Source: a virus (Duplodnaviria > Caudoviricetes). From it: DNA of 60,654 bases. Below are positions 13,675-59,622 of the stretch, piece by piece. The stretch is taken from the IMG/VR virus record IMGVR_UViG_3300031999_000020, positions 1 to 60,654 of that record; one strand, given 5' to 3'. The notes beneath the pieces were generated by a model. It saw nothing but the letters and a program-made list of their open reading frames with translations. It had not been told where the DNA came from and ran no database searches. Position numbers and translations under genes: made by a program. Each line of letters starts with the position of its first letter. Positions within the stretch are counted from its first letter, which is position 1.

Positions 13675-13887
13675 ATGGATTGCGATATATGCGGAAGAAA
13701 AGTGGATTGGCATGACTTGAATCAGGCGCAGCAAAAGGGCGACTCACGGGTAATTTGCGCTGAGTGTGAGGCCGCGTTCGTAGAGGACGCAGAGCGTGAG
13801 TCGAACTACTGGCAGTGTGAGCGAAAGAGCCGCATCGCCCGCGCCGCGCTGGACAAGACGGACGGGAAGGGTGGGGAGAATGAGTAA
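13675..13887 (+). CDS. Small CxxC...CxxC zinc-finger protein
   Basis: CDIC...CAEC; SD gagggg. Confidence 0.65.
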   Translation: MDCDICGRKVDWHDLNQAQQKGDSRVICAECEAAFVEDAERESNYWQCERKSRIARAALDKTDGKGGENE

Positions 13888-14659: not shown

Positions 14660-14660
14660 A

Positions 14661-22899: not shown

Positions 22900-23289
22900 C
22901 TACGCTGCCCAGTCCTGAAACACCGGATCTGTTTCTGGTCCAGGTGGAACATATGTCGCCAGCCACGCAGTGAATATTGGATCAGTTTCGATATGTATGG
23001 GTGGAGGCTGACAAGATGTCTCTAACCAGGATGTGAACCGCGGTTCGCCAAACATGCTTTTGTTGGATATCAATGCATTTGTAGCACGACATGACAGTTT
23101 AAGCAGTGTCTTTCGAAACAGCTGCTCACTGTTGCAAATCTTATCCAATTCTTCTTTGCTTGGAACAGCATCAGTGCTGCGCAGAAAATCAGCCAGTTGA
23201 TAATACAGCGTCAGCATTGACCGGCGGAACTCATGCGGGTCTTGGTACAGTGTTGGGTCCGTGCTGCATGGTTCCGGCGCCTTGGTCAC
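22900..23289 (-). CDS. Hypothetical late protein with two FRxxxLxL motifs
   Basis: Last gene of the virion operon; ATGA overlap. Confidence 0.65.
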   Translation of the reverse strand: MTKAPEPCSTDPTLYQDPHEFRRSMLTLYYQLADFLRSTDAVPSKEELDKICNSEQLFRKTLLKLSCRATNALISNKSMFGEPRFTSWLETSCQPPPIHIETDPIFTAWLATYVPPGPETDPVFQDWAA

Positions 23290-37475: not shown

Positions 37476-37925
37476 TCACCACCCGGTAAACGTGGCGTGA
37501 TACACCGAATACCAAGTCGGCGTCGTTCCACCAATAGTCCAAATCTTCTGTAAATTTGCCAGCATCAACGCGGTTATCCGCGGATCATCCGAGGCTAACG
37601 TATAACCGTCCGGAACACTTCGAGAATCGCCTATAATCAAGAAAAGTTGGTCCGGCAGCGGATAAATCTGACGCCAGGCGCCGGTCACAAAAAGGAACAA
37701 GCCAACAAAATTTCCGGAACTATCGGTCTTGACCCACAGATGGTCTTGCTCAGAATCACTCGGATACGTATTTCCAACTGTAACATTGGTTACATCCGTC
37801 GGGATCTCAACCGACAGAAGATCTGGCAGCCGGCGTAAAAAGTCCTGCCAATTAGTAAAGCACTGTCTATCTGGAAGCTGCTGCAGCTTGATAGCACCTT
37901 GAATAACATCAACATCAGTTGTCAT
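37476..37925 (-). CDS. Putative tail component
   Basis: VTVGNTYPSDSEQDHLWVKTD motif; follows the tail tubular B candidate. Confidence 0.55.
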   Translation of the reverse strand: MTTDVDVIQGAIKLQQLPDRQCFTNWQDFLRRLPDLLSVEIPTDVTNVTVGNTYPSDSEQDHLWVKTDSSGNFVGLFLFVTGAWRQIYPLPDQLFLIIGDSRSVPDGYTLASDDPRITALMLANLQKIWTIGGTTPTWYSVYHATFTGW

Positions 37926-37933
37926 TTTGAATC

Positions 37934-39793
37934 CTACGTTTGCATCTCAGTACAGCCGCCAAAATCATCTACTGCCCAATCATCATCGCACGCGCAATTA
38001 CATATAGCCACCTTTGGGTACTCCTCACATTGAGTAAGCGTATCCGGCTCTACCTCCGGTGTGGCTTTAATTCTGAGTTCATGCAGTTCCCAATAAATAC
38101 CCCAGAGAGTAATCATCAGTTGAATTTTCTTAAACACTCTAAACAGATCATGAGTAATCGGACTTCCGGCCTGATCATTTTCCGGATCTCCAATTGAAAA
38201 ATCTCTAATATGCTGTGGCCCGAATCCATTAATGAAACAACCATCCGGCATATCACAAGTCCGCCAAGGCGCCAGATGTGTGCGCTCACCGAGCGGCAAA
38301 AAACATGCGCTATGCGACGGTTTGTAATCTACCTTTATCTTAAAGTCGCCCTTGAACGTATCAAAATTAAAATCAACAGAGTGAAGCCCCTTGTTAAGAA
38401 AAGGATCCTTCAAATCATATTCTCGCGTGTATACGCGACTGCGTACCGGACGAATCATATCATCCGCAGTATCATAATTGATATCAGGATTAATCTCATA
38501 AAGTTTATTTACTGCGCCATCTTTAGACATGATAAATGCGCGTTCATTAACAGTACACATATCCATTGGATTAACACCCGTCCAAAGCCCAGTCCAAACA
38601 GGCTTGCTCGGAACACCGAATGACGACAATGCATCAAGTTCTAATATGACCATACCTCCATGAGCGTAATCTTTAATTGGCTTAAACGTATCGAAGTCTA
38701 CTGCAGATACTCGATATGGATTTACACTGAAGAATATCTTGTTTCGAAAATATCCAACAAAGCCAAACTTTATTAAGTCTCTGTCCCAGTATTTGAACCA
38801 CTGCTCTGTTTCTCTGGAGATAGGAACCCTGGCCCAGCGTTTCTGCTCATCGCGGCTCATAGATAATGAACGCACGAAGCCATCGTCCGCCATAAAAAAT
38901 GCATCTGAATTGACATTCGCATATGCGCGCGGACCAACAACACCGGCGTTATAACAAACAACCGAACCGAAAGGCCCAGCCTGCCACGCAGACCGCGGAT
39001 TCTGCGTTCCAAAGGTATACACCGCATTTCTGGTAGCACAGATAAGCGGTCCTATTCCGGTAGAGGTGTCAGTAAGCTGCAGAAATCCCATAAACGTAAT
39101 AGGTTCATTGACAGCATTAACGGGAAGATTGAATATCTGACCATAATACGCGCTGCCAGGAGTGAGTACTTCCTTGAACGTCACCGGAGCGTCCGGCGCC
39201 GCAACGCTGCCAAGAGGATCACCGCCGGTAAAATCAGAACCAGCATTTACAACAAATAATCGACTTTGATTATATGTACCGTTAGTCGATACCGGAATTT
39301 CCATCTTAGCAGGATCTGCGCGGTATGCATGAAAACCGTCCAATATTACCGGAAAAGCTGGAAAATCATACAGCACTAAAAAGCGTCCGGCCAGTGTCCA
39401 GTTTACACGCGAACGACGTGTATTGAGTGTAGACCCGCCATCAATTAAAATAGGTGTCAATGTGAAATTATCAATATTAATAGAGAATATTCTGCCAGAC
39501 ACCACCACAATCAAATACTGCCGGCTCATCACAGTAAATGGAATAAGCGCTTGAAACTTACCGGCCTCAAACACATTCTGATAACTGCGCGGACGTTTAT
39601 AGGGATCACTCAAGTAATCAGTAGGAAACTTAATGGCTATTCGTTCAAACCCCCAACGCGGCTGAATCGACGCACGGCGCACCGATACATTTATGCCGGA
39701 CGCATAACAGTTCTGCGCAATTCTATCCGGAATGACAGAACCATCCTGCCCTCCGGAGAAATCATCAGAACCATCTGCTAAAAGTTGAACCAC
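37934..39793 (-). CDS. Putative tail tubular protein B / DNA stabilisation (nozzle) protein
   Basis: N-terminal DFSGGQD..IAQN..GINV..RRASIQPRWG; beta-propeller-like composition; 619 aa. Confidence 0.65.
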   Translation of the reverse strand: MVQLLADGSDDFSGGQDGSVIPDRIAQNCYASGINVSVRRASIQPRWGFERIAIKFPTDYLSDPYKRPRSYQNVFEAGKFQALIPFTVMSRQYLIVVVSGRIFSINIDNFTLTPILIDGGSTLNTRRSRVNWTLAGRFLVLYDFPAFPVILDGFHAYRADPAKMEIPVSTNGTYNQSRLFVVNAGSDFTGGDPLGSVAAPDAPVTFKEVLTPGSAYYGQIFNLPVNAVNEPITFMGFLQLTDTSTGIGPLICATRNAVYTFGTQNPRSAWQAGPFGSVVCYNAGVVGPRAYANVNSDAFFMADDGFVRSLSMSRDEQKRWARVPISRETEQWFKYWDRDLIKFGFVGYFRNKIFFSVNPYRVSAVDFDTFKPIKDYAHGGMVILELDALSSFGVPSKPVWTGLWTGVNPMDMCTVNERAFIMSKDGAVNKLYEINPDINYDTADDMIRPVRSRVYTREYDLKDPFLNKGLHSVDFNFDTFKGDFKIKVDYKPSHSACFLPLGERTHLAPWRTCDMPDGCFINGFGPQHIRDFSIGDPENDQAGSPITHDLFRVFKKIQLMITLWGIYWELHELRIKATPEVEPDTLTQCEEYPKVAICNCACDDDWAVDDFGGCTEMQT

Positions 39794-41586: not shown

Positions 41587-42153
41587 CTATGGTACAATGG
41601 CTACTGAATGCCATTTCAGCGTTATCACATTTCCAACTATCGTATCAATATCTAAAGAGAAAGGATCACCGGCCGGAATAGGGCACGGTCCAGCAGGGAA
41701 TACAAAAATATACCCGGTATCAGTACACTGAATACAAGCATTCCACGGCGGCGCTGTAGGCGTAAATAGTGTGCATCTTGGAATCAGAGTGCCCGGCGCT
41801 GCATTTGGAGCCAGACAATCATTTATAACTTTGGTTTCACCAGAAAGACTATTGAAAGCAGTCACACGAAGATATCCATAATCTTCGTTCCAAAGGTATG
41901 ACCCAATCTGCAAAACAGTTAATCCATAAAACGAAACAACCGTTTCGACACCACACGCCGGCATAATAAAATCAGTTCCAGATGATAACGCGGCCACCAG
42001 AATCTGCTGAACATAAGGCTGACTATGGCACTCCTGAACAGCGCCAGCTTGATTGTAATACGGCGTTGGCGTGTTAGGGCTACAGGTGTCCCCACAAACC
42101 GAACAAGCTTCACCGCAGGAAGCCGTACTGTTTCCAGAACAGGTACATGCCAT
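41587..42153 (-). CDS. Cys-rich virion protein (short paralog of the 39793-41577 N-terminus)
   Basis: 13 Cys in 188 aa; shared PYYN..MPACG..LQxGSxLWN..GYLxVTAF..NDC..NAAPGT. Confidence 0.65.
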   Translation of the reverse strand: MACTCSGNSTASCGEACSVCGDTCSPNTPTPYYNQAGAVQECHSQPYVQQILVAALSSGTDFIMPACGVETVVSFYGLTVLQIGSYLWNEDYGYLRVTAFNSLSGETKVINDCLAPNAAPGTLIPRCTLFTPTAPPWNACIQCTDTGYIFVFPAGPCPIPAGDPFSLDIDTIVGNVITLKWHSVAIVP

Positions 42154-42434
42154 TAGCGTATCCTCAGTAACTCGGGCAACAAATACCTGCCCACTAGGTC
42201 CAATACCATAATAATTCCACCAATTATCAGACCCACTTTCCAGGCAAGCGCATCAATCCTAAATCCAAGTTCTTGAATCTTCATTAGCAGCTCCGCCTTT
42301 TCCTTTCCGATAAGCATAAGTGCCGCAGCAGCCTGCTCCTGAAGGGACTGGATTCTAATCTCAACGATCTCCAGCCGCCGGTCATAAGCCGTATGCCTCC
42401 GGTTACACTCATCGGATAGTATCGGGTCATTCAT
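42153..42434 (-). CDS. Coiled-coil protein with C-terminal TM helix (holin/XhlA-like candidate)
   Basis: WKVGLIIGGIIMVLDLVG TM segment. Confidence 0.55.
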   Translation of the reverse strand: MNDPILSDECNRRHTAYDRRLEIVEIRIQSLQEQAAAALMLIGKEKAELLMKIQELGFRIDALAWKVGLIIGGIIMVLDLVGRYLLPELLRIR

Positions 42435-42703
42435 TTTACCTCTTCCGGGGCCTGAGTCGGAACAGGAGTGGCTTTCTCCACAGCAATCGCTCTCTTGCAG
42501 ATAACGACAATCCCCTTTTGCACCTGGGATACGAGGTCCGCCTGAGCAGCAGAGACGTTTATCGTGCCGAAGGCTTGCAGGATTTGCTCGCAGTCCTTAG
42601 CGGTGTCGGGCTTTTGCTGCTGTAGCGGCGCATAGTCAGGGCTAACCGGCTCAGCCAAAGCCAAGGTCGGGACAAGTAGGGTCAAGAGTATACATTTCTT
42701 CAT
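42431..42703 (-). CDS. Small exported protein (possible fibre chaperone)
   Basis: Signal peptide MKKCILLTLLVPTLALA; two Cys in the mature part. Confidence 0.65.
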   Translation of the reverse strand: MKKCILLTLLVPTLALAEPVSPDYAPLQQQKPDTAKDCEQILQAFGTINVSAAQADLVSQVQKGIVVICKRAIAVEKATPVPTQAPEEVK

Positions 42704-42715
42704 AGTGTGGTTCCT

Positions 42716-44008
42716 TTAGGTGGTTGTACAAACGCAAACATCAGCGGTGTTATCAGAGCAGGATACGATGTTGTATCCCAAAGCCGCAGTGTTCTGCCCA
42801 AAGACACATCCCTTGTTCGCCCCACAAGTTGTGGTGCAGGCAGTATCGGCTCCAGTAGCCACACGCCAACCAATGTCAGTGGCAGTGGTGCGGATGGTGC
42901 CCGCAGCAAGCACGGCTTTGTCGTTACTGATGCGAAGCGCCTCTGCCGGTGTTGCGGAACCGTCGGGAGAGACTTTAAATACAAAACGGCCAGGCATATC
43001 ACCAGCGCCAGGAACGCCGTCAACATTAACCTCCAATATCGCAGCATCTTTAAAATCTACCCCATCAGCACCCGTAAAATATATCTTACCTAGGGCGTCT
43101 GCATTAGCCACAATAGTGTCTGCGGTACCGTCCGATGCCCGAGATTTTAAAAAGGCAATCACAGGTGACGCTGCTGAATTGGCACCGCCAGCAAAGACGG
43201 TATTATAATGACTACCTGGACTTGTATGAAACGTGTAGTTTTCGGCGGTTCCTACACTAGTCGTAACATCAGCAGGCATGGCTGCCAGCCCGTGTATGAT
43301 GCTAGTAGTCGTTTTCGCCATCACGATATTCCCGCCGGTGGTGGCGTCTTGGGTGAGGTTGCCGGAGTTGTCGGATATCAGCCAGCGGGAAAGCCCCCTA
43401 TTCTGAAAGGTGATATTGCCATTGGCAGTTGTCTGTAAATAAATAGACCCTCTAGCAGTGGTTCCAGCGGTAATGTAAATTTGCCCCTCTGCGCTACCAA
43501 CCTCGTTACCCTTCATGGTAATGCAAGCGCCTTCTGTTGGGTCGCAAGACGATCCGGCTGTTAGCGCTAGCGTCCCATCATCCGCATCCACACCCCGCAC
43601 CCCGCGAATCGTGGCGACGGAGGAGGCGGTGGACGTATAACCAAAAACCAAATCGGAGGTCGTAGACGCCCCCATCCTGGGCATGTTCCAACCAATGTAG
43701 CCGCCAGGATTGAAAATGATACCACGAGACGATGCTACGTCCCCACTTTCAAGCGTTAACGTACCCGCGTACCCTCCAGCGTTTTCGTTGCCACCGCCAA
43801 GGATGGAAGCTCCGCGAGTGTTCGTCAAACATGCACCGCCACCACTAATGCAAAAAGCATTATTATCCGCCCCATCAATCGTATTGGCCGTAATCGAAAA
43901 CGGAGCGGGGGCGTCGAAGTACTGGTTGTAGTGGAAGTAGCGATGGGAGAAGTCCTGTGCACTAAGCAGCGTCGGGATGAGAAGCAAGATGAGAAATAGC
44001 TTTTTCAT
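42716..44008 (-). CDS. Fibre-like beta-repeat protein with signal peptide
   Basis: True start MKKLFLILLLIPTLLSA-QD (SD gaggat); KSR..GT..IVANADALGKIYFTG..DMPGRFVF..PAEALRI fibre module; Cys-rich C-terminal tip. Confidence 0.75.
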   Translation of the reverse strand: MKKLFLILLLIPTLLSAQDFSHRYFHYNQYFDAPAPFSITANTIDGADNNAFCISGGGACLTNTRGASILGGGNENAGGYAGTLTLESGDVASSRGIIFNPGGYIGWNMPRMGASTTSDLVFGYTSTASSVATIRGVRGVDADDGTLALTAGSSCDPTEGACITMKGNEVGSAEGQIYITAGTTARGSIYLQTTANGNITFQNRGLSRWLISDNSGNLTQDATTGGNIVMAKTTTSIIHGLAAMPADVTTSVGTAENYTFHTSPGSHYNTVFAGGANSAASPVIAFLKSRASDGTADTIVANADALGKIYFTGADGVDFKDAAILEVNVDGVPGAGDMPGRFVFKVSPDGSATPAEALRISNDKAVLAAGTIRTTATDIGWRVATGADTACTTTCGANKGCVFGQNTAALGYNIVSCSDNTADVCVCTTT

Positions 44009-44016
44009 AGTATCCT

Positions 44017-45216
44017 CTATGGTAAAACTGATACACGCTTCCACGGGTCGGCAGATGCGGACATTACGCTCGCGAGATACGCCTCCACTACCGCTTGATT
44101 GGCGGGGGAGAGGGCGGTATTGAAGGCGAGGAGTTCGAGAATGGAGCCGTTGAAATCGTTAGTCGCATAACCTAAAAATAACGTGCCACTCAGATCGCCA
44201 GTATTGCCAGAGGCCACGGAGGGAGCCGCAGCCACGCCATCTATGGAGAGGTCTATATTTCCGCCCGAATGAATCGCCTTTACTACCGAAAGCGTATTCA
44301 CAGTAAACGCTTTGACAATGGTATCCGCCCCGGTATCAAAGTTTTTATAAGTCAGATCGGCGGTACTACCATACAGTTGCATATACCCGCCAGTGTCCCT
44401 GAAGATGTTTTGAGTACCGGCGGCTGCGTTGGCTCTGAGAACTAGATATGTAGTTTTTGCATTGTTCGCATAAATATCTGCCAGGGTCGCCGTGGATGTC
44501 ATCGCAACATCCACCCCATCGAACCGCACCACCGGCAGGCAATGATTCCCCGCCGTGTTGCAAGACCCTCTGTACTCTGGATACGTGGTGGTCGCCTGAT
44601 AGGTGCTGTCGGCAAGGGAGGATGCAACGCTCCACTGCGTTACTTCCACCTGACCAAATCCCGCAGCGTTTGTATCCTGCAAACCAAAAGTAACATTCCC
44701 ACCAGCAGCCTTACCAAGTACCGTTACGGTATAGTCTGCTAGAGCAGCCGTTACTGTAATCGCTGTAGTGTTGCCGGTAGCAGAGCCCGTATGCATTAAA
44801 GTTAGCGCCGTGTTCCCCGTTACGGCTCTTGCCTTAATGGTAAATCGGTAGGATTGGCCTGCCAGGGTGGAGATTGCCCGAGCGATAGATCCATTCTGCG
44901 CTGTAAACGTACCCAGAAGGGCGCTGTTTGCCGTTACGTTTGTTTTCGTCCACGCTGCATTGGAAAGGTCGTCGCTATAGGTAAACCGATTCTCCCTATT
45001 ATCCCCCCTGCTGACCAACGGCTGATTGCCAGCAGTCGCCTGGGTAAACCCCGCAGCCACGCTGCCCTGATTCGCCCATGCGGATACGCCCTTTAGCGCT
45101 GTGACGGTAAGGCCCTTGTAGCTCTTTAGCCAAAGGGTAGGCGCTAACGCTTTTACGGCAGCTTCGTCAGCAAATGCCGTTGAGACAAGTAGGAGTAGGG
45201 ATAGTAAATATCTCAT
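44017..45216 (-). CDS. LamG/concanavalin-like lectin-fold protein with signal peptide
   Basis: MRYLLSLLLLVSTAFA-DE; LWL..VSAWANQG..TQATAGNQP..VVRFDGVD..FNGSILELLAFNTALS..VEAYLA. Confidence 0.75.
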   Translation of the reverse strand: MRYLLSLLLLVSTAFADEAAVKALAPTLWLKSYKGLTVTALKGVSAWANQGSVAAGFTQATAGNQPLVSRGDNRENRFTYSDDLSNAAWTKTNVTANSALLGTFTAQNGSIARAISTLAGQSYRFTIKARAVTGNTALTLMHTGSATGNTTAITVTAALADYTVTVLGKAAGGNVTFGLQDTNAAGFGQVEVTQWSVASSLADSTYQATTTYPEYRGSCNTAGNHCLPVVRFDGVDVAMTSTATLADIYANNAKTTYLVLRANAAAGTQNIFRDTGGYMQLYGSTADLTYKNFDTGADTIVKAFTVNTLSVVKAIHSGGNIDLSIDGVAAAPSVASGNTGDLSGTLFLGYATNDFNGSILELLAFNTALSPANQAVVEAYLASVMSASADPWKRVSVLP

Positions 45217-45217
45217 G

Positions 45218-45676
45218 TTACTTGAAGCTCGAAATGTTAAACGCTCCCGAAGCAGGGGCCGCCGTACCGTCTTTTACCCAGACATGCACGGTGGTAATCA
45301 GGCCAAACTGAGCCAAGTTTAGTGCCAGAGTATCCCCGCCCTTCATGGAGTAGTGGTCCGTCACCCCTCCGTCTAAACTAATCACCACATCGCCGTTTGT
45401 CTGGTTATCAAAGAGCACCATCTTGGTGCCATCCGGCAGGTCCAGCACATCAGCGTAGGCTGCTCCGATACCGGCAGGGAGTGTTACGTCCATAGTGGCA
45501 AAGGTGGCGGCGGTGGTGGGGACATTTGCTACGATATTAACCGTCGTGTTTCCACTCGCATCGCACAGAACAGGAATCTTAGTCCCAGTAGGCGTCTTAC
45601 ATTGTATATTTGACGCCGAGTTCTGCGCATATGCAGTGCTTGAGATAAGGAAAAGAATCAGTAATAGCTTTTTCAT
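45218..45676 (-). CDS. Exported beta-sandwich protein (paralog of 45682-46107)
   Basis: Signal MKKLLLILFLISSTAYA-QN; IGAAYA..DLPD.T..V.FDNQT. Confidence 0.75.
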   Translation of the reverse strand: MKKLLLILFLISSTAYAQNSASNIQCKTPTGTKIPVLCDASGNTTVNIVANVPTTAATFATMDVTLPAGIGAAYADVLDLPDGTKMVLFDNQTNGDVVISLDGGVTDHYSMKGGDTLALNLAQFGLITTVHVWVKDGTAAPASGAFNISSFK

Positions 45677-45681
45677 TGTTC

Positions 45682-46107
45682 TTACCCCATCGCATAAATT
45701 AAAAAGTTACCAGCCGTAGCTGCTACAGTCCCGCGTTTTATATGAATAATCGCAGTCGATACTCTACCAATAGCAAAGAAGTTTATCGCAAGCTGCTGCC
45801 CTGACTGAAGCCAATAAGTATCATGCACCCCCGCGTCCATACTGACTTTTATATCAGCGTCGGTTTGGTTATCAAACATGACCTCTCGGGTGTCATCTGG
45901 AAGATCAGTACCAAGAGCATAGGCTGCACCTATAGCCGCAAAGCCGGTGGCGCTCATTTCAGTAAATCCAGCATTTGTGTCCGGAGTAGGCGGATTTACT
46001 ATATAGTCGGTTATTCGACAGAGCAGATAAAGCATGGCTTTCCGCCATGACATTGAATCTCTATAATGCAGATCCGGACAGATACAAGGGTCGCACTTAT
46101 CGGGCAT
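45682..46107 (-). CDS. Beta-sandwich protein with Cys-rich N-terminus and no signal peptide
   Basis: MPDKCDPCICPD..; SD aggagaagg; C-domain paralogous to 45218-45676. Confidence 0.75.
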   Translation of the reverse strand: MPDKCDPCICPDLHYRDSMSWRKAMLYLLCRITDYIVNPPTPDTNAGFTEMSATGFAAIGAAYALGTDLPDDTREVMFDNQTDADIKVSMDAGVHDTYWLQSGQQLAINFFAIGRVSTAIIHIKRGTVAATAGNFLIYAMG

Positions 46108-46129
46108 GACCTTCTCCTTTAACTAAACA

Positions 46130-47224
46130 CTAATCACAAATTGCCACTTTCACAGCAGCGCTGTTAATCTTCATATTTGCATATTTTCCAGTAGCAATTG
46201 TACAAGCACCTGCTCCAGTTGTTCCAAAGTCTGACCAGGGAATTCCGGCCACAGTTTTAAGAATAACGTTTCCACCTTCGGACGCATCTATCGTAATATT
46301 ACCTGCGTCCGCAGAAATGATACGTATCGCACCGCCAGCTCCCGGACCACCATAGTCCGCGCCATCCAGTGCAATTCGTCCACCACGCGACACTGCAATA
46401 CCGCCGCCACCACTAATAATCATTCGTCCACTATCAGTTCCCGGACTAGAAGAATTCATAATGTAACCGATCCAGCCGCCAGAGCCCAATTCTCCGTAAT
46501 ACAATTCAGAAGTGCCAGCCACAGACGGAGACATAAACCACTTCTGCTCTCCATTAACATTAAAATCTATGTACCCAGTAGCTCCATCTGAATCAAGTAC
46601 AATATCACCAGAACCGGCGGTATTTAGTGTCAAATCTCCGTTATCCGCAGTAGAAATAAGAACATCACCACCCAAACCAGCACCACCTCTGTCAGCGCCA
46701 TACAAATCAATAAAAGCTCCGCGAGATCCGCCTACCGCTCCGCCACCAGATATTGTAAATCGATCATCATCGTTACCGATAGATGTGGCCGCCAATATTT
46801 TAGCATGCCAATTTCCAGTTCCACTCTTTCCATAATACAATTCTGAGTTAGAAGCAGCCGAAGGCGCCATAAACCATTTCTGCTCGTTTCCAGTTCTGAA
46901 ATCAATATATCCACCGGCACCATGCGCATTAAATAGAATATCACCATCATCAGCAGTTATAATTTGAACATCACCGCCCGCGCCAGCACCGCCGCGATCC
47001 GCACCAAATACCGAAACAGAACCTCCACGAGAACTGCTAGTTCCAGTTCCACCGCCGCCGGATATATTCATTCGACCGCTATCCGTTCCGTTTGGTGTGT
47101 TAGCGTTAATAGTAAACGCAGACGCGGTATACTTATAATCACCAGCAAAATAGCGACTGGTATTCTGCGCGAACGCAGATTGCGCAAAAATTAACAAACT
47201 AATCAGAATAACAATCTTTTTCAT
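46130..47224 (-). CDS. Gly-rich fibre-like repeat protein with signal peptide (paralog of 42716-44008)
   Basis: Start MKKIVILISLLIFAQSAFA-QN (SD agagga); about three internal repeats of roughly 100 aa (ISGGG..SRG..GADRGG..EQKWFM..SELYYG). Confidence 0.75.
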   Translation of the reverse strand: MKKIVILISLLIFAQSAFAQNTSRYFAGDYKYTASAFTINANTPNGTDSGRMNISGGGGTGTSSSRGGSVSVFGADRGGAGAGGDVQIITADDGDILFNAHGAGGYIDFRTGNEQKWFMAPSAASNSELYYGKSGTGNWHAKILAATSIGNDDDRFTISGGGAVGGSRGAFIDLYGADRGGAGLGGDVLISTADNGDLTLNTAGSGDIVLDSDGATGYIDFNVNGEQKWFMSPSVAGTSELYYGELGSGGWIGYIMNSSSPGTDSGRMIISGGGGIAVSRGGRIALDGADYGGPGAGGAIRIISADAGNITIDASEGGNVILKTVAGIPWSDFGTTGAGACTIATGKYANMKINSAAVKVAICD

Positions 47225-47232
47225 AATTCCTC

Positions 47233-47532
47233 TTATGGAGAAGTACAGCGCCAAGCCATATACTCTGCCAAGCAGTTATTACAGAAGACTCCCGTTATAT
47301 TACAACTTTCAAGAGGGACGTTAGGATCTAAGAGCAATGCTTCGTCGTAAGTGAACGTATATGAATACTTCGTTTGGCCACAAAACGAATTACCACAATC
47401 CATATTAATGAGTGTTGCTTCAAGAAAAGGAATTGCATCAGCCATCACAGAAGGATCCATGCACAAGATCACATCAACCGGCGGACATCCACACCCTAGT
47501 TTATTAAGTGATGTGTATACTACTGATTTCAT
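47233..47532 (-). CDS. Cys-rich small protein (paralog of the 47529-48956 N-terminus)
   Basis: KLGCGC..ILC..YDEALLLDP..ITGVFCNNC. Confidence 0.7.
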   Translation of the reverse strand: MKSVVYTSLNKLGCGCPPVDVILCMDPSVMADAIPFLEATLINMDCGNSFCGQTKYSYTFTYDEALLLDPNVPLESCNITGVFCNNCLAEYMAWRCTSP

Positions 47533-48956
47533 GCCCACTCCAGCGTTACTACAGTTCCAACGACACCTTTAATTTTTAAAGATGTTCCAGGAGCGCCGGC
47601 AGCAGCTGGAAGTTTATACTCAAGATTGGCGGCCTGTACTTGAGCTTCAAAAGAAGAATAATTAGTGCCGGTGTAAGTAACCGACACATTAGGTTCAAAA
47701 AACTTTACTTTACGAGCAACACCGGTAATGTTGCCTATCCACAGATCCACATTGCCAAAATAAGCTATACCAGAAAATGCGGACAGATCCGTATAAGTAT
47801 AGTTTGGCGTAGCCTCATCAATCGTATCAGCCGCCTGGTATCCTACACTTTTTGTTCCAAGTTGTAATCCAACCCCACCAAGGATCGCCGAAGCGTCGGT
47901 GTCCTCTAATAAATTCCATTGTCCGGCAAGAATAGTATTGCCTTTCAGATCTTCGTCACCTGCATTAGTTATTCTGTTTCTGGAACCCGCACCAATAAAT
48001 GCACGCCACGAACCAACAATATAATTATTCTTACCGGCAACAATACATGCGGCATCTGCGGCTTGAAGCGGTGCTGATACATCACCAATCACGTTTAATA
48101 CACCAGCTACGACACACGAAGACTCTGTGTAGTTCACAGTATTTTCTGCACCAGCTATAATCGAACAATGATTAGCCTCTGTAATATAATTATTTCTGCC
48201 AAATATAATACCATTACCAGCGCCCAGCCTATACTGAGCAGACATCTCAATAATATTAAGTGCCCCACCTCCAATAAAGCTGACATCACTTAATGTAATA
48301 CTATGCCTCTCTCCTCCGCCAATAACCGATGCCACACACGTATCAATAGTATTTGTATAACCACCAGCGATTACACTATTATATGCATAATTAACGGGAT
48401 CATCACTATAAGTTGACAAAATAGAATTAATAGCGCTGCTAGAACCACCACTTAAAACTGCACCCCCAGACACACCGGCACCAACAACATTTCCTGAATA
48501 TCCATCAATTAGAATAGGACAATCAGCATCAGGAACGGTTCGCCTAGCGCGCTGATTATTTACCCTGACATCAAACGGAACATCATCAGTTGTTCCACAA
48601 AATTCAACATCAATCGTATTACCGCCATTTCCGGCTAACAACCACGACGGACTATGTGTTAGAATAGAATTAATCAGATATTCTAAATAAGCAGTCTGAC
48701 AACCTTTACAAAAGATCCCAGTGATATCAAATGAATTTAAAACATAAGTAGGATCTGTCAGCAGCGTTTCGTCGTATTCTAGATAATAATTGTACGAATC
48801 ACAGCCATTACAATCAGCTGTAGTTATGATATTGGTAAGCGTGGCTGGAAGAAAATCGCTGCCGTCTGCCAAAAGATTATCAGTCAAGCAGAGAATAATA
48901 TCACTGTCGCAGGAACATGTGAGCTTTGTGCTCGACCGGTAAATGAAGCTTCTCAT
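47529..48956 (-). CDS. Fibre/spike protein: Cys-rich N-terminal domain plus beta-helix (S-x-I-x-G-G-x-x-N repeats)
   Basis: WLLAGN..FCGTTDDVP..RVNN; SVIAGGYTN / SVIGGG / SFIGGG repeats. Confidence 0.75.
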   Translation of the reverse strand: MRSFIYRSSTKLTCSCDSDIILCLTDNLLADGSDFLPATLTNIITTADCNGCDSYNYYLEYDETLLTDPTYVLNSFDITGIFCKGCQTAYLEYLINSILTHSPSWLLAGNGGNTIDVEFCGTTDDVPFDVRVNNQRARRTVPDADCPILIDGYSGNVVGAGVSGGAVLSGGSSSAINSILSTYSDDPVNYAYNSVIAGGYTNTIDTCVASVIGGGERHSITLSDVSFIGGGALNIIEMSAQYRLGAGNGIIFGRNNYITEANHCSIIAGAENTVNYTESSCVVAGVLNVIGDVSAPLQAADAACIVAGKNNYIVGSWRAFIGAGSRNRITNAGDEDLKGNTILAGQWNLLEDTDASAILGGVGLQLGTKSVGYQAADTIDEATPNYTYTDLSAFSGIAYFGNVDLWIGNITGVARKVKFFEPNVSVTYTGTNYSSFEAQVQAANLEYKLPAAAGAPGTSLKIKGVVGTVVTLEWA

Positions 48957-48974
48957 AGGGCTGCCATATAGTCG

Positions 48975-49002
48975 AAAAAGAGGGGGGTCCGAGACCCCCC
49001 TC
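48975..49002 (-). terminator. Intrinsic terminator after the capsid gene
   Basis: Minus strand gaggggggtc-tcg-gacccccctc-ttttt. Confidence 0.85.
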
Positions 49003-49015
49003 AACCTAATTCACA

Positions 49016-50860
49016 CTAAGACACACACTGAGTAATCGTCGGAGCACCACCGCACGCGGGACAGGTTGAATCTGTCGCCGGAGGTACGCAGACCCCGATA
49101 ATACCCTTAACCAAGCAAATAGACGACTCATCCAAGTCTATGATATACGTATTATGGAGTATATCAACCGCATGAATCTCCAAGGTTTCACTGGTTCCGT
49201 CGCCGTAGTAGACAACGACATCATCACCAGCGCCGGCCTTAATGTTATTCTTCAGGATCACCATTATGTCATCAGGTAACATTCCAGCCTGCGTGTAACT
49301 CAGCACGTCCGAATAACAACCGCGAGTCTCATCGCAGTAGATCGAGACGAACTGGTCACACAACGTCGGAGATATGCTCATAGTTACTTCCAAATGCAGA
49401 CCATCGGCCGAGATCGCCACGATGACCGCAGTGACGTAACCACCCTGCAACAGACCCAACTGGATTGTAGCCCCAACACCCACCGCGCTCGGAACCGCAA
49501 GCGTGATGAAGTACTGTCCAGGCACCGCCGGGTTCGGAATCGCCGGACCAAGAATCAGCGGACACGGGCAGCCGGTACTCGGAATTAAGTTGCCACACTC
49601 TTCCGCAGCCGGAGGACACTCAGGTTGGACATTGAACTTCACCGCAGTAGCCGCATACGGACGCTCAACCAGGACGCCGAACAGACCCTCAGAGAACTGA
49701 GGACAGACGCCCAGACTAGCCGAGGTCAGGTAGTAACCAGACCTGCGCAGTGGATCATCAACCGTTTGCGGATTAATCCACTGGAAAGCGTCGAACCAAG
49801 CGTACTCCGGACCAAACGATGAGCCTTCGCCCAAAGTCTGCGCAGTTGGCATGTAGAAAATCTTGGCCGGGTATTTCCCGAAGAACAAGACCTCTTCGTA
49901 CCGAGAGATTGCCGGATTGAGATAATCCGGATTAACACTCGTATACTCGCCAACCAACGCCGGCACCTGATTCACATATGGCATCACACGACTCAGATTA
50001 CCAGCCGCATCACGCGAAAACCTGCGCGGGAATAGGATGGTAGTCGGAATGAACATATTCCGAATAGTCGAAGTGAAGTTGTACTTCTCAACCAAGTCGT
50101 TCGCCGCGCCGCTGAACCGCACGTCAAAGCGTAACGTCGGATCATCACGGTACATGTGACTAATTAGCTGCTGAGAACACATCATTGCAAACAGCGGCGC
50201 GCTATTCTGAACCGCGTACGGTACGCAAGTCGGCAAATAACGCATCTGCTCGTACATCTGCTCACACATGTCCACACTCAGCCGACCAAGAACGACTCCA
50301 CCGGTATTCGGATAAGCGTACGGCATGCCGATATTGGGCTTGAGTCCGCCACTGTCCTGAACATACTTCTTGGACAAATTGGAGATGATGTTGTGCGCGA
50401 TGTTGACTTCCTTCATGAACGCAATCTGACGATACAGATTCTGTATGATCATGGAAAAGACCTGATCATACATGTAGGTCGTCTGAATCGCTTTCACGCA
50501 GAAGGACGGCGATCTGAACTGTCTTTCACCAAGTTCAACTTCTTTCTCATCGAACCCGTTTCCAGACAGTGTGGTAATATTGTAACCACAGTCGCCAACA
50601 CACGGCACACATCCAGTTGTGTTAGGAAGTTTCTTCCACTGAGACAAGTCCTCTTCAATCGCGGGCATCCCGCCTCTGAAGAAAAGCTGTTTCATTGTGG
50701 TGCCCTGCCCCAAAGGCCACTCTTCCATCTGAAGAGTATCGGCCAAGAAGGACGGATGCACCTGAGTTAAATCATAGATAGTTTTGGAAATCATGGGCGC
50801 GCCCGAAAGGAACGCCTGATTGACTTCCACTTCATTCATGAAGCAAGTTTGAGAAGTCAT
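49016..50860 (-). CDS. Major capsid protein with Cys-rich C-terminal extension
   Basis: Follows portal and scaffold; has its own promoter, SD gaggtg and downstream terminator. The fold itself was not verified. Confidence 0.75.
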   Translation of the reverse strand: MTSQTCFMNEVEVNQAFLSGAPMISKTIYDLTQVHPSFLADTLQMEEWPLGQGTTMKQLFFRGGMPAIEEDLSQWKKLPNTTGCVPCVGDCGYNITTLSGNGFDEKEVELGERQFRSPSFCVKAIQTTYMYDQVFSMIIQNLYRQIAFMKEVNIAHNIISNLSKKYVQDSGGLKPNIGMPYAYPNTGGVVLGRLSVDMCEQMYEQMRYLPTCVPYAVQNSAPLFAMMCSQQLISHMYRDDPTLRFDVRFSGAANDLVEKYNFTSTIRNMFIPTTILFPRRFSRDAAGNLSRVMPYVNQVPALVGEYTSVNPDYLNPAISRYEEVLFFGKYPAKIFYMPTAQTLGEGSSFGPEYAWFDAFQWINPQTVDDPLRRSGYYLTSASLGVCPQFSEGLFGVLVERPYAATAVKFNVQPECPPAAEECGNLIPSTGCPCPLILGPAIPNPAVPGQYFITLAVPSAVGVGATIQLGLLQGGYVTAVIVAISADGLHLEVTMSISPTLCDQFVSIYCDETRGCYSDVLSYTQAGMLPDDIMVILKNNIKAGAGDDVVVYYGDGTSETLEIHAVDILHNTYIIDLDESSICLVKGIIGVCVPPATDSTCPACGGAPTITQCVS

Positions 50861-50873
50861 AAAGATACACCTC

Positions 50874-51022
50874 AAGTGTTAGTCGAAAAAACAAAACTCA
50901 AAATTAGCCTAGTGGCTAATTTACTCTTATTTTTCCGAATCCAACACTTACGGTGTCAGCGGCGATAAGATTCGAACCTTATCGGATCTGGACTGCAGTA
51001 ACGCGCGCAGTGCTCGTACTGC
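50874..51022 (-). ncRNA. Structured 5' leader of the capsid gene (candidate cis-regulatory RNA)
   Basis: Three stem-loops, one with a GGTTCGAATC T-loop-like apex, and a long stem ending at the SD. Confidence 0.5.
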
Positions 51023-52447: not shown

Positions 52448-52808
52448 CGAGTTCCTCCTTGGTTAAATCCCCGGACTCCATCACGGCCGCGCTTGCGCCG
52501 TAACTGAGTGCGGGTATGTCACTTGACTGGTTGGTTCTGAGATAGCGGTCAATGAAATATAACAAATCATCCAGGCAGTTATTGTAACCAATGGACTTCT
52601 GAGCTTCAAACGCCTGCGCAGCTAGGCAGTTATCAGACGTGGCTGGGACTGTTTCCGGACGCGCCAACTCACGCAGCGCCCGCAACACTCCAGACGCTTT
52701 CAGCGCCGATAGCGCAAACGGAAGATACTTCAAGAAATCAGGACTATCCTGCAGTTCTTTAAGTGTCGAATCAAATCCAGTTTTAAACACGTTTCCTCTG
52801 CTTGTCAT
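52350..52808 (-). CDS. Hypothetical head-assembly protein
   Basis: Directly after the portal; GYNNCLDDL pattern. Confidence 0.6.
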   Translation of the reverse strand: MTSRGNVFKTGFDSTLKELQDSPDFLKYLPFALSALKASGVLRALRELARPETVPATSDNCLAAQAFEAQKSIGYNNCLDDLLYFIDRYLRTNQSSDIPALSYGASAAVMESGDLTKEELDAIIAGTDPDIIYSKLYAKRIHTTGNQPGGVG

Positions 52809-55297
52809 ACTAATGTCCCTCCAGCTGTGGGTAAAGAAGTGGGAGGAGGAATCGCCGGCGCCGGGGTTGTTTCGACATCAATCGGCGAAGGCGTGCTTCC
52901 GGCCATTTCATCTAACTGAGCACTTGCACTCTGCTCAGCCTGATGTTTGAGTTGAACTTCAAGCCGCTTGTTCTCCGCGTCCCGCTCAACTTTGGTCCGC
53001 ATTATATCCGCGCGCGTACGATTTGCCTCTTCGCCGCGCTTGACCTGACTCTGAACCTTCTCGTCCGCGCGCCTGGAGTCGCCCTGCGCCGTAAAGTCTT
53101 TGCGCTGGTCATCGCTCATAGTCGTCTGCGTAGCCTCCTGATCCTGCTTCTGCTCCTGAAGTTTCGCCTGCAGCTGCTTCGTGGCGTTAGCACGATTTAA
53201 CTGCGTGAGTTTGACAACCTGGCCAATGCCGGACTTGAGTTTATCTAGGGTACCCTTATTGAATGGGTTGCGTCCGGCCGCTTCAGCATGCTCCTGAATA
53301 TGCGGAGTCATCACAGCGAGTACCTTATCCGCATCAATCGGCTGCAACTGCTGCTGAGTGAGCTTCTTCAAGATGTCGCTGGCCAGTGTAAGGTGCGTAG
53401 TAATGTGCGCGATATGGTCATCACCCAGCCCCATAACGGGAGACTGCCCAAGCTGCGACACCGCATTCTCGACACCAGCCACGCTGGACCCGCCGTTCTG
53501 AGCTTGATACTGCGCCTTAGATGGCAAGAACGCGCGCACATGGTGTTTACCCACAGTGGCAAGTATCCACTGACGCTGCCACTCGTAAACACCATCACTG
53601 CCGAGCGCACCGATGATGCCCTGCATGGCTTCGAGCGACATAATGCGGGCTAAGGTAGATCCGTCACCGGCAACACGCGAAGCTGACACCTCGATATGCC
53701 GGGCCACATTGTTCTCGGAATCCCACTCAAATATCTCCGCGGGCATGCCGTCCTGAATACAGCGGTCTTTCCACTTCTTCGCATCCGCATATGCCGGCCA
53801 GGTCATATGCTTACCAGCCAAAGCCTTGAGCCAGATGTTTATCACGTTCTGGTACACACGGTCCTGCGAAGTATAGAAATGATTTACCACATTACGCAGC
53901 ACGCCGAATTCGCTGAACGCCTGCATACGCGCCTGCGAAGCGCTGACACTGCCCTTGTCTGCATCCGGAGAGGCGGGGTCGTCTCCGCCGTTCATCAAGT
54001 TGCGCTGTGTCATGTTCTCAAAGTACTGCGCAAGGCCGACCAGTTGATTGACATTTTCTCCAATCTGACTCTCGACAACTTCCGCAGAACCAATGTGCGT
54101 GATACCGCCGGGGTATAACCTAATCGGAGCCGCATCAGCACCAATCACAGGACTTGACCGTAGTAGTACTGTTGCGGCCAGCCGGCCGGCATCCACCAGC
54201 GAGCAATGCATCTGATTAATCGCCTGAGAGAGCGCATACATCTTATGTCCTAACCCACGGTTCGAATGAATCGTGAACTCGCCAGGACTGGCCGTAAAGA
54301 TAATCAGCGCCTGCTCGAAAGACTCGTACACCCGGTCAGCAAAGAATAAACAATCCTTCTGTCCGATCATCTGATGGAACATATAATGCGAAATCTTTCC
54401 ATCATACTCTTTATAGAATAGAGAGATGAGTCTAATGTTGTCGGTATACGCAGACTCCCACATCAAATCACCAGACTCTAACTTATGCTGCATGTCCATT
54501 TCGGTGAACGGCAGACCTTGTGCTTTGTAATAACTGTTGGCCTGCCGTAAGAGTAGATGCTTTAGTTCATCAACATTCCACGGAGAACCAGTCGGCTTGG
54601 ACCCGCTCTTGGTATCCTTCATCGCGCGTTCATATGCCTGAAACAACCACTGCACATCGAAGAACGACTCAATGCAGCAGAACGACAGCCGGTCCATATC
54701 GGTAAGTGTCTGGTCAGCCACATAGAACTTTGATAACTCGATGGTCCGATAATGCCAGTCCTCCGGGTCATGCCAGAACATGGGCGACACCCCGAGTTCC
54801 ATGAGCTGCATCGCCATCGTATTCTGCACCACGTTGAACGACGGCCACGCGCGCACAATCTTGTCCGCATGCTCAGTGAGAATATCCTGATACTCCTCCA
54901 GCTGCGGAGCCATGTTCTTCTCGCCGGGGTACTTGATAACAAACTTCATCAAGTACTCCGTCTCATACAGCAGGTTCCACAGGGCTTCAGCGCCCTTGTC
55001 GAGTTTGGCTCTGGCGTTTAAATCGTTGAAGTTGGCCACATACCCGAGTCCGTGCTTCTGCAGCTCGGCCGGATCGAACGGCGGATTACCGGACATCAGC
55101 CCGCGTATTGAGGCATAGAGGTGAATGCGCTTGATATGTTCAGCGCGCAGTTTGAAAAACACACTGCGGGCGCCGGTGAGTGTCTTGATAATATTATCAG
55201 GCGCATCTAGTTTGCCGGTTTCGTCTTCAGTAATCTGCCCGCGCATAAAGTCTTGCGCAGGGAATACACCGGCCGCACTTTCAAAATCATTAGCCAT
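52805..55297 (-). CDS. Portal protein
   Basis: 830 aa, first large gene of the head operon; GNPPF, HSNRGLG, DDHIAHITTH and a Q/K-rich helical C-terminus (P22-like barrel). Confidence 0.75.
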   Translation of the reverse strand: MANDFESAAGVFPAQDFMRGQITEDETGKLDAPDNIIKTLTGARSVFFKLRAEHIKRIHLYASIRGLMSGNPPFDPAELQKHGLGYVANFNDLNARAKLDKGAEALWNLLYETEYLMKFVIKYPGEKNMAPQLEEYQDILTEHADKIVRAWPSFNVVQNTMAMQLMELGVSPMFWHDPEDWHYRTIELSKFYVADQTLTDMDRLSFCCIESFFDVQWLFQAYERAMKDTKSGSKPTGSPWNVDELKHLLLRQANSYYKAQGLPFTEMDMQHKLESGDLMWESAYTDNIRLISLFYKEYDGKISHYMFHQMIGQKDCLFFADRVYESFEQALIIFTASPGEFTIHSNRGLGHKMYALSQAINQMHCSLVDAGRLAATVLLRSSPVIGADAAPIRLYPGGITHIGSAEVVESQIGENVNQLVGLAQYFENMTQRNLMNGGDDPASPDADKGSVSASQARMQAFSEFGVLRNVVNHFYTSQDRVYQNVINIWLKALAGKHMTWPAYADAKKWKDRCIQDGMPAEIFEWDSENNVARHIEVSASRVAGDGSTLARIMSLEAMQGIIGALGSDGVYEWQRQWILATVGKHHVRAFLPSKAQYQAQNGGSSVAGVENAVSQLGQSPVMGLGDDHIAHITTHLTLASDILKKLTQQQLQPIDADKVLAVMTPHIQEHAEAAGRNPFNKGTLDKLKSGIGQVVKLTQLNRANATKQLQAKLQEQKQDQEATQTTMSDDQRKDFTAQGDSRRADEKVQSQVKRGEEANRTRADIMRTKVERDAENKRLEVQLKHQAEQSASAQLDEMAGSTPSPIDVETTPAPAIPPPTSLPTAGGTLV

Positions 55298-55300: not shown

Positions 55301-55924
55301 TTATCTCCAGGTTCTATTGTAAATAACTGCCTGAATTGTAGGTATACTAACATTCAGGTCCGAACCTTTAAGTTTACAAAACTCAATACTACTTAAACTT
55401 GTAGTCTTAAACTCTTTGCGCAAATGATCAGCTAGTTCTACACTTAAACAGGTTGATCGTCTATTACGTACACTATCCTTTGCTGTTACAAATCTGCAAT
55501 TTTGCGGAGAATATCCCTGATCATTATCAATACGATCAATGTATAAATCCTCGTGCCAACCAGCAACCGTAACTGCCCATACTAAGAAAACAGTACGCCC
55601 GTCTGCACCATTCCATTCTTCACAAACAGTAATACCACGTCCACCGTAATTACTATATGCCTTATCACGAATATTATAACATCTGTGCAGCATATGATCG
55701 TACATTACACTTAGTATTTTTCTTTTACGTCTAGACTTTTTATCAGATAGGCCCTGTCCATAGTCTTTGATACTAAAGTTTCGATTGCATAATATCTTGC
55801 GAGCACCAAAAATATCTCTACAGACATATTCTTGGTGAAGACCGCGCCATCCAACAAACTGTTCAACAGTCCACAACCCATATACACGACCAGTAAAATC
55901 TATATAACGTCTATGCTGTTTCAC
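55301..55924 (-). CDS. HNH-type homing endonuclease-like protein
   Basis: DFTGRVYGLWTV; MLHRCY..YGGRGITVCEEW..IDRIDNDQGYSPQNCRF. Confidence 0.85.
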   Translation of the reverse strand: MKQHRRYIDFTGRVYGLWTVEQFVGWRGLHQEYVCRDIFGARKILCNRNFSIKDYGQGLSDKKSRRKRKILSVMYDHMLHRCYNIRDKAYSNYGGRGITVCEEWNGADGRTVFLVWAVTVAGWHEDLYIDRIDNDQGYSPQNCRFVTAKDSVRNRRSTCLSVELADHLRKEFKTTSLSSIEFCKLKGSDLNVSIPTIQAVIYNRTWR

Positions 55925-56505
55925 TTAACTTCCTCAAGCTGCCAGCAACTAACCGTCTTCATCTCCGCTATCTGGTCCGGTGTAAGTCTCATGTCTCCTG
56001 TATAAAATACTTTAGCGCGCAGCACACACTGGCATACTGAACAATGACCGAGCATATCATGACAGTAACTGCGTTTATCACCAATGCACGCGAGCGCGAT
56101 GTCGTCACTCCATTTTATAAAACAGGTTCTATCTGGAAAAATGTTTTTCGGACAAGTCGCGCACTGTGCTGCTCGTATGTCTGCCTGTTCTTGGGATGCA
56201 GTATGGTCATTTGGAAACAACATCCATTCAAGCAGACTGACCCCGCCTTTAATTGTTGCTAAAAAGCCACGCTTTAATTCATATGGCTCGCATGCCCCAC
56301 AGTTTTCAGGAAGTCCGCAGAGATATTGATCCAGTACCATATCCAAGTGTTCAATAGCTGGCAATTGGTTTAAAACGCGGTAAGAGATTATAGCTCTAAG
56401 CAAATCCGTCTTGTTACCCGCCACATACTGATAACTGGAATCTGGATCTACAAAGCGATAAACAAGAGAACCTGTAAAAGGTTTAAAACGCAGGAATACA
56501 GCCAT
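55921..56505 (-). CDS. Cys-rich hypothetical protein
   Basis: RAAQCATCPKN..CSVCQCVLRAKV..SCW. Confidence 0.7.
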   Translation of the reverse strand: MAVFLRFKPFTGSLVYRFVDPDSSYQYVAGNKTDLLRAIISYRVLNQLPAIEHLDMVLDQYLCGLPENCGACEPYELKRGFLATIKGGVSLLEWMLFPNDHTASQEQADIRAAQCATCPKNIFPDRTCFIKWSDDIALACIGDKRSYCHDMLGHCSVCQCVLRAKVFYTGDMRLTPDQIAEMKTVSCWQLEEVK

Positions 56506-59139: not shown

Positions 59140-59622
59140 TTAATCTATATGCCTCCAAGTCCGTCCTGTACGGGCCTTCCAGATCGTTGCGCGGCATACG
59201 CCTAGTGTTCTAGCCCAAGTATTATTACTTGAGTTATCGTCCGCGCGAATAGCGCGTATATCACTATATGTTAGTTTAAGTCTTGGACCAGATGAATACT
59301 TATTGAACGGCTTATTTGCATTCTCGCGCCGCGTTTCGTACTTTAAATTAGATAGATGATTATTCAGCTTATCGCCATCCTGATGCGAAACGTCATGTCC
59401 AGGAGGCCGCGAACCGATCCAAGTTAAAGCGACCATAGCATGCAGGTCGTATCCTTTAGGCTTAGCGCCTGGGTATGTGAATACAAGACCTCGATAACCA
59501 CACTGTTTAATTGGAGTCTTACGAATACGGCGATTCTGACGACGGCGTACACGCCCATGGGTACTCACAGCGTACCGGCTATCAAGAGGAAAAGGTCGCC
59601 AGCGCTCACGTGTATCTTCCAT
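59140..59622 (-). CDS. NUMOD4-HNH homing endonuclease
   Basis: ERWRPF..YAVSTHGRVR; HAMVALTWIG; VSHQDGDKLNNHLSNLKYETRREN. Confidence 0.9.
   Translation of the reverse strand: MEDTRERWRPFPLDSRYAVSTHGRVRRRQNRRIRKTPIKQCGYRGLVFTYPGAKPKGYDLHAMVALTWIGSRPPGHDVSHQDGDKLNNHLSNLKYETRRENANKPFNKYSSGPRLKLTYSDIRAIRADDNSSNNTWARTLGVCRATIWKARTGRTWRHID

Follow-up and report, generated by a model that had tools for sequence, protein, structure and literature searches.

Two adjacent genes with a common domain

The window analysed here is the whole of virus record IMGVR_UViG_3300031999_000020 (Duplodnaviria; Caudoviricetes), 60,654 base pairs (bp) long, with direct terminal repeats and rated 100% complete. The left half of the genome carries genes for a primase, a helicase, an exonuclease, an annealing protein, methyltransferases and a DNA polymerase on the plus strand, and the large structural proteins are encoded in a minus-strand block from about 55.3 to 23.3 kilobases (kb). 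A block of fibre-like genes is bounded by one 619-residue protein (49016-50875) and another of the same length (37934-39793). Our subject is two small genes inside this fibre block, both on the minus strand: gene A (45218..45676, 152 residues) and gene B (45682..46107, 141 residues). On that strand B is read first, followed by a gap of 5 nucleotides and then A, whose stop codon lies 1 nucleotide before the start of the next gene. Both proteins end in the same domain, which we call the knob for short, and they differ in what precedes it. The genome holds exactly two copies of the knob, those of A and B. By hhalign the knob profile was also compared with the small proteins at 41587-42153 and 37476-37925 of the block; the probability was 0.1 for both, so that there is no hidden third copy.

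The knob covers residues ~56-152 of A (45221..45511) and residues ~45-141 of B (45685..45975). BLASTP aligns residues 53-148 of A with residues 42-137 of B without a gap and with 44 identities in 96 positions (46%; expectation value E 1e-25), which is far beyond chance. The motif IGAAYA..DLPD.T..V.FDNQT..., on which a first-pass annotation of this DNA had based its claim that A and B are paralogs with a common domain, falls inside the aligned stretch.

The N-termini are of two kinds. Residues 1-17 of A (45626..45676) form a putative signal peptide, MKKLLLILFLISSTAYA, with a predicted cut before Q18. It divides into MKK, LLLILFLISS and TAYA, that is, a positive n-region, a hydrophobic core of 10-12 residues and A-x-A before the predicted cut. 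The charged n-region, the h-region and the small residues at -3 and -1 that define a type I Sec signal are thus all present. Residues 26-38 (45563..45601) run from Cys26 to Cys38, the only two cysteines of mature A, and are predicted to form a disulfide loop; the knob follows. B begins with MPDKCDPCICPDLHYRDSMSWRKAMLYLLCRI. Its residues 1-33 (46009..46107) make up an N-terminal module with a cysteine motif (C5, P7, C8, C10 ... A24, L28, L29, C30), and a short helical stalk leads from there to the C-terminal knob. The best 10-residue hydropathy is 2.92 in A against 1.56 in B, which indicates that B has no signal peptide. A longer upstream start for B is excluded because its open reading frame (ORF) already begins at the first start codon after a stop, and the 12 Cys-type relatives that were aligned have the same start.

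Given a significant alignment and differing N-termini, the observation made in the first-pass annotation was correct. Its term for the N-terminus of B, a Cys anchor, needs a correction. The CxxCxC...LLC motif is invariant, and the sense of a lipid anchor has to be dropped: only MPDK precedes Cys5, and there is no hydrophobic stretch, signal peptide or lipobox (L-[AS]-[GA]-C), so B was rejected as a lipoprotein.

A large unnamed family of C-terminal knobs

The knob is not a peculiarity of this phage. A profile made from 17 sequences (alignment A1) and searched against 1.84 billion representatives matched 455 of them at E<=1e-3, 69 at E<=1e-10 and 20 at E<=1e-30. Among the 150 family members listed, which are 52-593 residues long, nearly every one is matched right up to its C-terminal end. 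A word-indexed search returned 15 proteins for A (14 with a signal peptide and one with the Cys motif) and three for B. The domain is therefore a large family of C-terminal knobs of about 100 residues.

This family has no name in the libraries that we searched. Pfam and PHROGs at E<=0.01 gave zero families for A and zero for B. Scans of 30 and of 124 family members found no consistent family either, and no PHROG was matched by more than one of the 124. There are sub-threshold Pfam hints at beta-sandwich families among these 124 (Glyco_hydro_30C in 15, with a best E of 0.0011, and Qn_am_d_aIII and Enas in six each). A sequence-profile search of the PDB gave one match, to a ribosomal protein at E 0.48, which we take as chance. 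No match came from tblastn of A, B and the family members P0063 and P0061 against 50,697 GenBank phage records, nor from blastn of the A/B gene pair. In a collection of species genomes the single pattern DNQT[ND]GDV produced 25 pattern matches, none of them confirmed, which is weak evidence that the family is absent from cellular genomes. A scan of viral contigs with protein A alone gave nine pattern matches and again none confirmed, and a locus scan with a narrower alignment (A4) returned the known loci and nothing further. Hence, as far as the libraries and searches used can tell, the knob family appears to be undescribed, and so do the module with the Cys motif and the exported paralogs of fibre proteins that are treated below.

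The ESM Atlas points in the same direction. In it, A and B lie near unnamed, mostly viral clusters of proteins of about 100-160 residues (score 0.92-0.93). The Atlas also has a model for residues 45-141 of B, whose matches are three viral clusters of ~110-residue proteins, again unnamed (TM 0.58-0.73). Two leads fall below the trusted level, namely PRD1_P5_spike_N, found in 32% of one cluster (0.87), and XepA (PF27453; 0.78, a score often reached by chance). One of the three Atlas clusters nearest to B by features (158 residues, 102 members, 0.92) is labelled 81% Archaea (Methanobacteriota), which is a lead only. In view of the signal peptide and the C-terminal beta domain of ~100 residues, we also considered a C-terminal sorting domain of Type IX secretion (the Por_Secre_tail type) and rejected it. 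There is no Pfam match, and such domains always go with an N-terminal signal peptide, whereas among 124 members 42 lack any N-terminal extension and 17 carry the cytoplasmic Cys motif.

Interchangeable N-terminal modules

Sorted by a heuristic of our own, the 124 family members of at most 260 residues have no N-terminal extension in 42 cases, a signal peptide in 36, the Cys motif in 17 and something else in 29. The knob thus stands by itself in some proteins, and in others it follows a signal peptide, the Cys motif, another fibre adaptor or a repeat shaft. The Cys motif is strikingly constant, with C5, P7, C8, C10, A24, L28, L29 and C30 invariant in 12 of 12 aligned Cys-type proteins. It is also a module in its own right, as P0018 has it joined to an unrelated C-terminus. 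In long Cys-motif proteins (P0090, 593 residues; P0142, 550; P0126, 403; P0103, 275) repeats stand between motif and knob. A search for longer proteins bearing the first 40 residues of B found none, a weak negative since the profile search did find long Cys-motif members. In P0036 the knob sits behind the other fibre adaptor of the phage studied here, the one that makes up a 101-residue protein of the fibre block. Hence, the family includes knobs in the position of a tip, C-terminal and behind an anchor and a repeat shaft.

Signal peptides and shafts are combined as well. In the signal-type protein P0011 the unit before the knob is homologous to four shaft repeats of the Cys-type protein P0142 (E 2e-13, 2e-11, 7e-10 and 3e-7). 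The architecture of anchor, shaft and knob therefore comes in two forms, one headed by a virion-type address and the other by an export signal. A Cys pair of P0011 aligns to a Ser and a Thr in the non-exported P0142 repeat and so, judging by the alignment, the exported version of the shaft repeat has acquired a Cys pair.

How often have the addresses been exchanged? We built a tree of 124 domains over 97 columns (IQ-TREE quick search, LG+G4), in which 65 of 121 forks remain open. The clade that holds A has 21 rows, of which 19 are signal-type, and inside it are starred sets of five and six rows that are all of this type. B falls in a clade of nine rows, seven of them Cys-type, with P0034 as its sister (SH-aLRT 97). 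Separate clades that are mostly of one class mean that A and B have long been separate paralogs, and that for the most part each has been passed on together with its address. Across the whole family the addresses have nevertheless been swapped many times: the tree needs at least 34 changes of N-terminal class, between the minimum possible of 3 and a shuffled mean of 65.2, and 0 of 200 shuffles gave a number as low.

Several features suggest that the signal-type knobs are indeed exported. First, 14 of the 15 nearest relatives of A have the same signal-peptide layout, and A-x-A followed by Q, E or D recurs across signal-type members. Second, a Cys pair spaced like Cys26 and Cys38 of A recurs in signal-type relatives, and mature cysteines come in even numbers in 34 of the 36 signal-type members (0 in 12, 2 in 18, 4 in four, 3 in two). 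Third, signal-type knobs keep similar company. Within two genes of the knob there is another signal-peptide gene in five of five contexts (the window, L006, L007, L008 and L009), and in the window canonical signal peptides head four fibre-block proteins: 46130-47224, A, 44017-45216 and 42716-44008. These four have 10, 2, 2 and 2 mature cysteines. The claim of the first-pass annotation that one domain is made in an exported and a non-exported version is borne out by the signal peptide, the even cysteine counts and the Cys pair of P0011, all of them features of sequence. We infer that A is exported to the periplasm.

Relatives of the gene pair and an exchanged cassette

If A and B formed a functional unit, we would expect to find them together in related phages. 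The adjacent pair recurs once, in the close relative L006, where a Cys-type gene is followed by a signal-type gene. The phage of locus L001 (record G001, 49 kb, 80% complete) has two tandem Cys-type copies, and its 49-kb record holds neither a signal-type copy nor any further one. Each of two records rated 100% complete carries a single copy of the knob, which lacks an address and lies beside fibre-like genes. The arrangement of L010 is that of L002, and in L002/L010 and L003 address-less forms of about 100 residues stand directly before fibre-like genes. Three short metagenome contigs (L007, L008 and L009) carry a signal-type copy without a Cys-type neighbour. The pairing is therefore not conserved, and relatives with only one version are what the first-pass annotation had itself named as speaking against its model. 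Together with the exchange of addresses on the tree they identify the A/B pair as ordinary module shuffling, not as a matched two-part device.

Comparison with L006 by blastn shows such shuffling at close range. Positions 46260-46037, where the upstream gene ends and B begins (with about 23 of its codons), are 95% identical between the two phages. Over 46036-45602, the rest of B together with the signal peptide and linker of A, there is no detectable DNA similarity. Identity returns to 97.8% over 45601-43856, from the Cys26 codon of A through the whole gene for the 399-residue protein that follows it and into the next gene. At the protein level B is 53% and A is 85% identical to its L006 counterpart. 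Hence, between phages that are otherwise about 97% identical, the domain of B is a replaced cassette. A break right behind a conserved N-terminal module is the usual mark of host-range cassettes in fibres, and the replacement in B fits a specificity element.

A diversity-generating retroelement behind the variable knob was considered and rejected: the PHROG scans showed no reverse transcriptase, and positions 42000-49100 contain no template-like repeat.

A trimer model of B

Three copies of B, modelled with alignment A3, gave ipSAE values of 0.75, 0.67 and 0.60 (median 0.67), against 0.00 for the best of three controls. The partner pLDDT was at least 86, and contacts agreed between runs to at least 94%. 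The modelled interface takes in residues 7-53, that is, the Cys motif and the stretch that follows it, and in the knob alternating residues of 74-81, 103-111 and 134-141, which face residues 90-119 of the copy next to them. The model supports a homotrimer of B with an N-terminal bundle and a cyclic arrangement of knobs, without demonstrating one.

What A and B could do

In our view the balance tips, if only gently, towards a reading in which B is a virion fibre of minimal form, trimeric and with a knob that can be exchanged, and A is the same knob, sent to the periplasm along with three fibre-like proteins that are also exported. The same judgement covers, jointly, the reading of the knobs as beta-rich domains at the tips of fibres in uncultivated tailed phages. 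Under this explanation, an interchangeable N-terminal address module would set the destination of the knob. In B the invariant Cys motif of ~30 residues and the helical stretch would form a trimeric stalk or anchor, with the knob behind it as an exchangeable specificity cassette. We infer that B is attached to the virion. In A the same knob would follow a cleavable Sec signal and a disulfide loop. A and its three signal-peptide neighbours would be made from the same late gene string, and the periplasm of a diderm host would be the destination of all four. In that case, particles assembled in the cytoplasm cannot incorporate A. Two genes hint at a diderm host, a lipoprotein-like ORF (197-478) and one for an SLT endolysin whose N-terminus is hydrophobic (684-1196).

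What would an exported knob be good for? The likeliest answer, to us, is that A would be a free, disulfide-stabilised, ligand-binding knob in the envelope, in the company of the other exported fibre-like proteins. By masking or occupying an envelope ligand, it could keep progeny or superinfecting phages from being captured. This role of receptor or ligand masking is conceivable, and we hold it only tentatively, as somewhat doubtful.

Several points weigh against this explanation. Signal peptides were called by eye and with a hydropathy heuristic instead of a trained predictor, and the genomic contexts number only about eight. A knob that is exported only to the periplasm needs a further step to reach the outer face of a receptor. 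The searches of Pfam, PHROGs, PDB sequences and GenBank phages gave no relative that would lend the domain a name, so that the term fibre knob rests on position, fusions and the model. As for the model, the ipSAE mark is reached by 20 of 30 proteins solved as one-chain pairs and by 1 of 23 solved as single chains, counts that hold only roughly for the B trimer as they come from two copies and other alignments; and three copies were a chosen number, without comparison to two or five.

One could also argue that the knob proteins are accessories of fibre modules, such as assembly chaperones or decorations of head or tail, and that the N-terminus of A is an uncleaved membrane tether. Small ORFs beside fibre genes are often chaperones, the address-less forms that stand directly before fibre-like genes (L002/L010, L003) would suit such a role, and no named family or fold speaks against it. 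However, the domain ends long repeat-shaft proteins of up to 593 residues, and a domain at that end occupies the position of a tip, not that of a separate chaperone. The replaced cassette in B fits a specificity element, and the recurrent A-x-A with Q, E or D behind it, together with even numbers of mature cysteines in 34 of 36 members, points to cleavage and export instead of a tether. We consider the accessory role unlikely.

Slightly less likely still is that virions are assembled from two compartments. The exported modules, A and its three neighbours, would fold and acquire their disulfides in the periplasm and dock after lysis on adaptors already present on the particles, for example the 101-residue protein. 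In a wider form of this idea, which concerns a group of tailed phages, fibre modules with Sec signals, A among them, would be exported and oxidised in the periplasm and would meet adaptor-bearing particles after lysis, or else soluble copies of the tip would neutralise receptors around the burst; we find this wider form about equally unlikely. The four exported proteins are encoded in the late fibre block, tightly packed with structural genes, and one of them (42716-44008) matches PHROG tail-fibre families. Exported and virion-type proteins have shaft repeats and the knob in common, and an adaptor-only ORF overlaps the start of a signal-peptide fibre both in the window and in L001. Yet A has no recognisable piece that would bind an adaptor, and dilution after lysis would make docking inefficient. 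There is also no precedent known to us, and the literature searches, whose sources were available in part, gave no fibre paralogs that bear signal peptides.

Very improbable, finally, is the model of the first-pass annotation, in which A and B fit each other as plug and socket and hetero-oligomerise once cytoplasm and periplasm mix at lysis: the genes are adjacent, 46% identical in their domain and paired again in L006, but elsewhere the pairing is absent, the two belong to separate subfamilies of the tree, B models as a homotrimer on its own, and the knob of B was replaced while that of A was kept between near-identical phages, which is not expected of co-adapted partners.

Comparison with known phage systems

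The reading of B as a virion fibre has good parallels. In modular fibres and receptor-binding proteins, such as T7 gp17, the receptor-binding proteins of lactococcal phages and the P5 spike of PRD1, a conserved N-terminal virion anchor carries an exchangeable C-terminal head. The proteins described here resemble them in the order of anchor, optional shaft and C-terminal knob, in the modelled trimer, in the recombination break just past the N-terminal module and in the presence of several paralogous fibre genes in one block. They differ in that no sequence link to a named fibre family exists (the PRD1_P5_spike_N hint in the Atlas lies below trust), in that the Cys-motif anchor is undescribed as far as we searched, and in that many members have a Sec signal in place of an anchor.

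For A the nearest parallel is one of gene arrangement. In phage T5 the receptor-binding protein pb5 has as its neighbour an exported lipoprotein, Llp, which blocks the receptor FhuA (PMC9586334). As in T5, a gene for a putative virion receptor-binding protein adjoins one for an exported protein, and we propose that the latter may keep progeny and superinfecting phages off the receptor. The likeness extends to gene arrangement only. Llp is a lipoprotein unrelated to pb5, whereas A is a paralog of the virion knob and has a type I signal without a lipobox, and a masking function of A is only proposed.

Another exported phage protein is XepA of the Bacillus subtilis element PBSX, whose gene lies between tail-fibre and lysis genes. 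A shares with XepA its small size, an apparently beta-rich make-up, an export signal and a gene position where the structural genes end. There is no sequence match, though, and the Atlas score is 0.78 only; the type of host differs, and the oligomer of XepA is reported to differ as well.

Our results define a widespread, unnamed domain family of phages and a conserved Cys-motif address module. They also indicate two versions of the fibre parts shaft repeat and knob, one for the virion and one exported by Sec. Exported paralogs of virion tips in a late structural block would lie outside the standard picture of tailed-phage assembly. If receptor masking or joining after lysis is true, then the annotation "structural" would be wrong for a sizeable share of the genes in such a block, here four genes with about 1,345 of roughly 2,700 fibre-block residues.

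Neighbouring genes and further observations

All genes of the fibre block described in this section lie on the minus strand. Upstream of B, 46130..47224 encodes a protein of 364 residues from an ATG (MKKIVIL...), with a signal peptide and Gly-rich repeats. Its match to End_tail_spike is weak and sub-threshold (E 9e-5, 23.1 bits against a cutoff of 25). Before it lies the adaptor-only gene (47233..47538), whose Cys-rich product of 101 residues is a paralog of the N-terminus of a 491-residue fibre (47529-49004; 41% identity, E 2e-20). Similarly, a 188-residue protein (41587-42153) is a paralog of the N-terminal part of a 594-residue protein (46%, E 1e-28). Cys-rich modules head four fibre-block proteins other than those with signal peptides.

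The adaptor-only ORF overlaps by ~20 nucleotides with the start of the signal-peptide fibre-like ORF when the latter is taken at its full extent (46130-47254). The same overlap is found in L001 (7678-8094 and 8076-9812), though the proteins are only distantly alike. The arrangement looks maintained and not like a recent break.

Downstream of A follows the gene for the 399-residue protein (44017..45216), with the signal peptide MRYLLSLLLLVSTAFA; its homologues come after the signal-type knob in L006 and L007. Next is a 430-residue signal-peptide protein (42716..44008) with a tail-fibre-like C-terminal part; it matches PHROG families 18345 (E 8.5e-22) and 9942 (E 2.1e-18), both of tail fibers. 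The middle of this gene (42864-43856) is also replaced relative to L006, with short patches of 75-87% identity left, and so represents a second mosaic cassette in the block.

The 5' ends of signal-peptide genes resemble each other in DNA. Positions 43976-44011 and 45644-45679, and likewise 44000-44022 and 47216-47238, are 74-75% identical over 23-36 nucleotides. The part that is alike in three of these genes consists of the region of the ribosome site and the first codons of the signal peptide. This likeness may be a shared recombination joint, or a mere result of similar peptides.

Cysteine is unevenly distributed in this genome. The sole transfer RNA (tRNA) gene of the phage is a tRNA-Cys (GCA) and lies within the fibre block (42442-42529). 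Fibre and adaptor proteins near it are unusually rich in cysteine (5.1%, 6.9% and 8.9%), and the 619-residue protein at 49016-50875 has 3.6%. Three large structural proteins (23286-30290, 30290-31927 and 32687-35314, minus strand), 3,754 residues in total, contain zero cysteines. One of them, 2,334 residues long, carries an SLT domain (E 9.6e-20) and LPD38 and matched PHROGs of internal virion proteins as well. Upstream of the structural block, a 194-residue protein without a family match (55921-56505, minus strand) has 12 cysteines (6.2%).

Finally, the genome carries three HNH endonuclease genes (15382-15963 on the plus strand, 55301-55924 and 59140-59622 on the minus strand), one of which sits amid methyltransferase fragments (12004-15493) and one of which adjoins the gene for an 830-residue protein (52805-55297).

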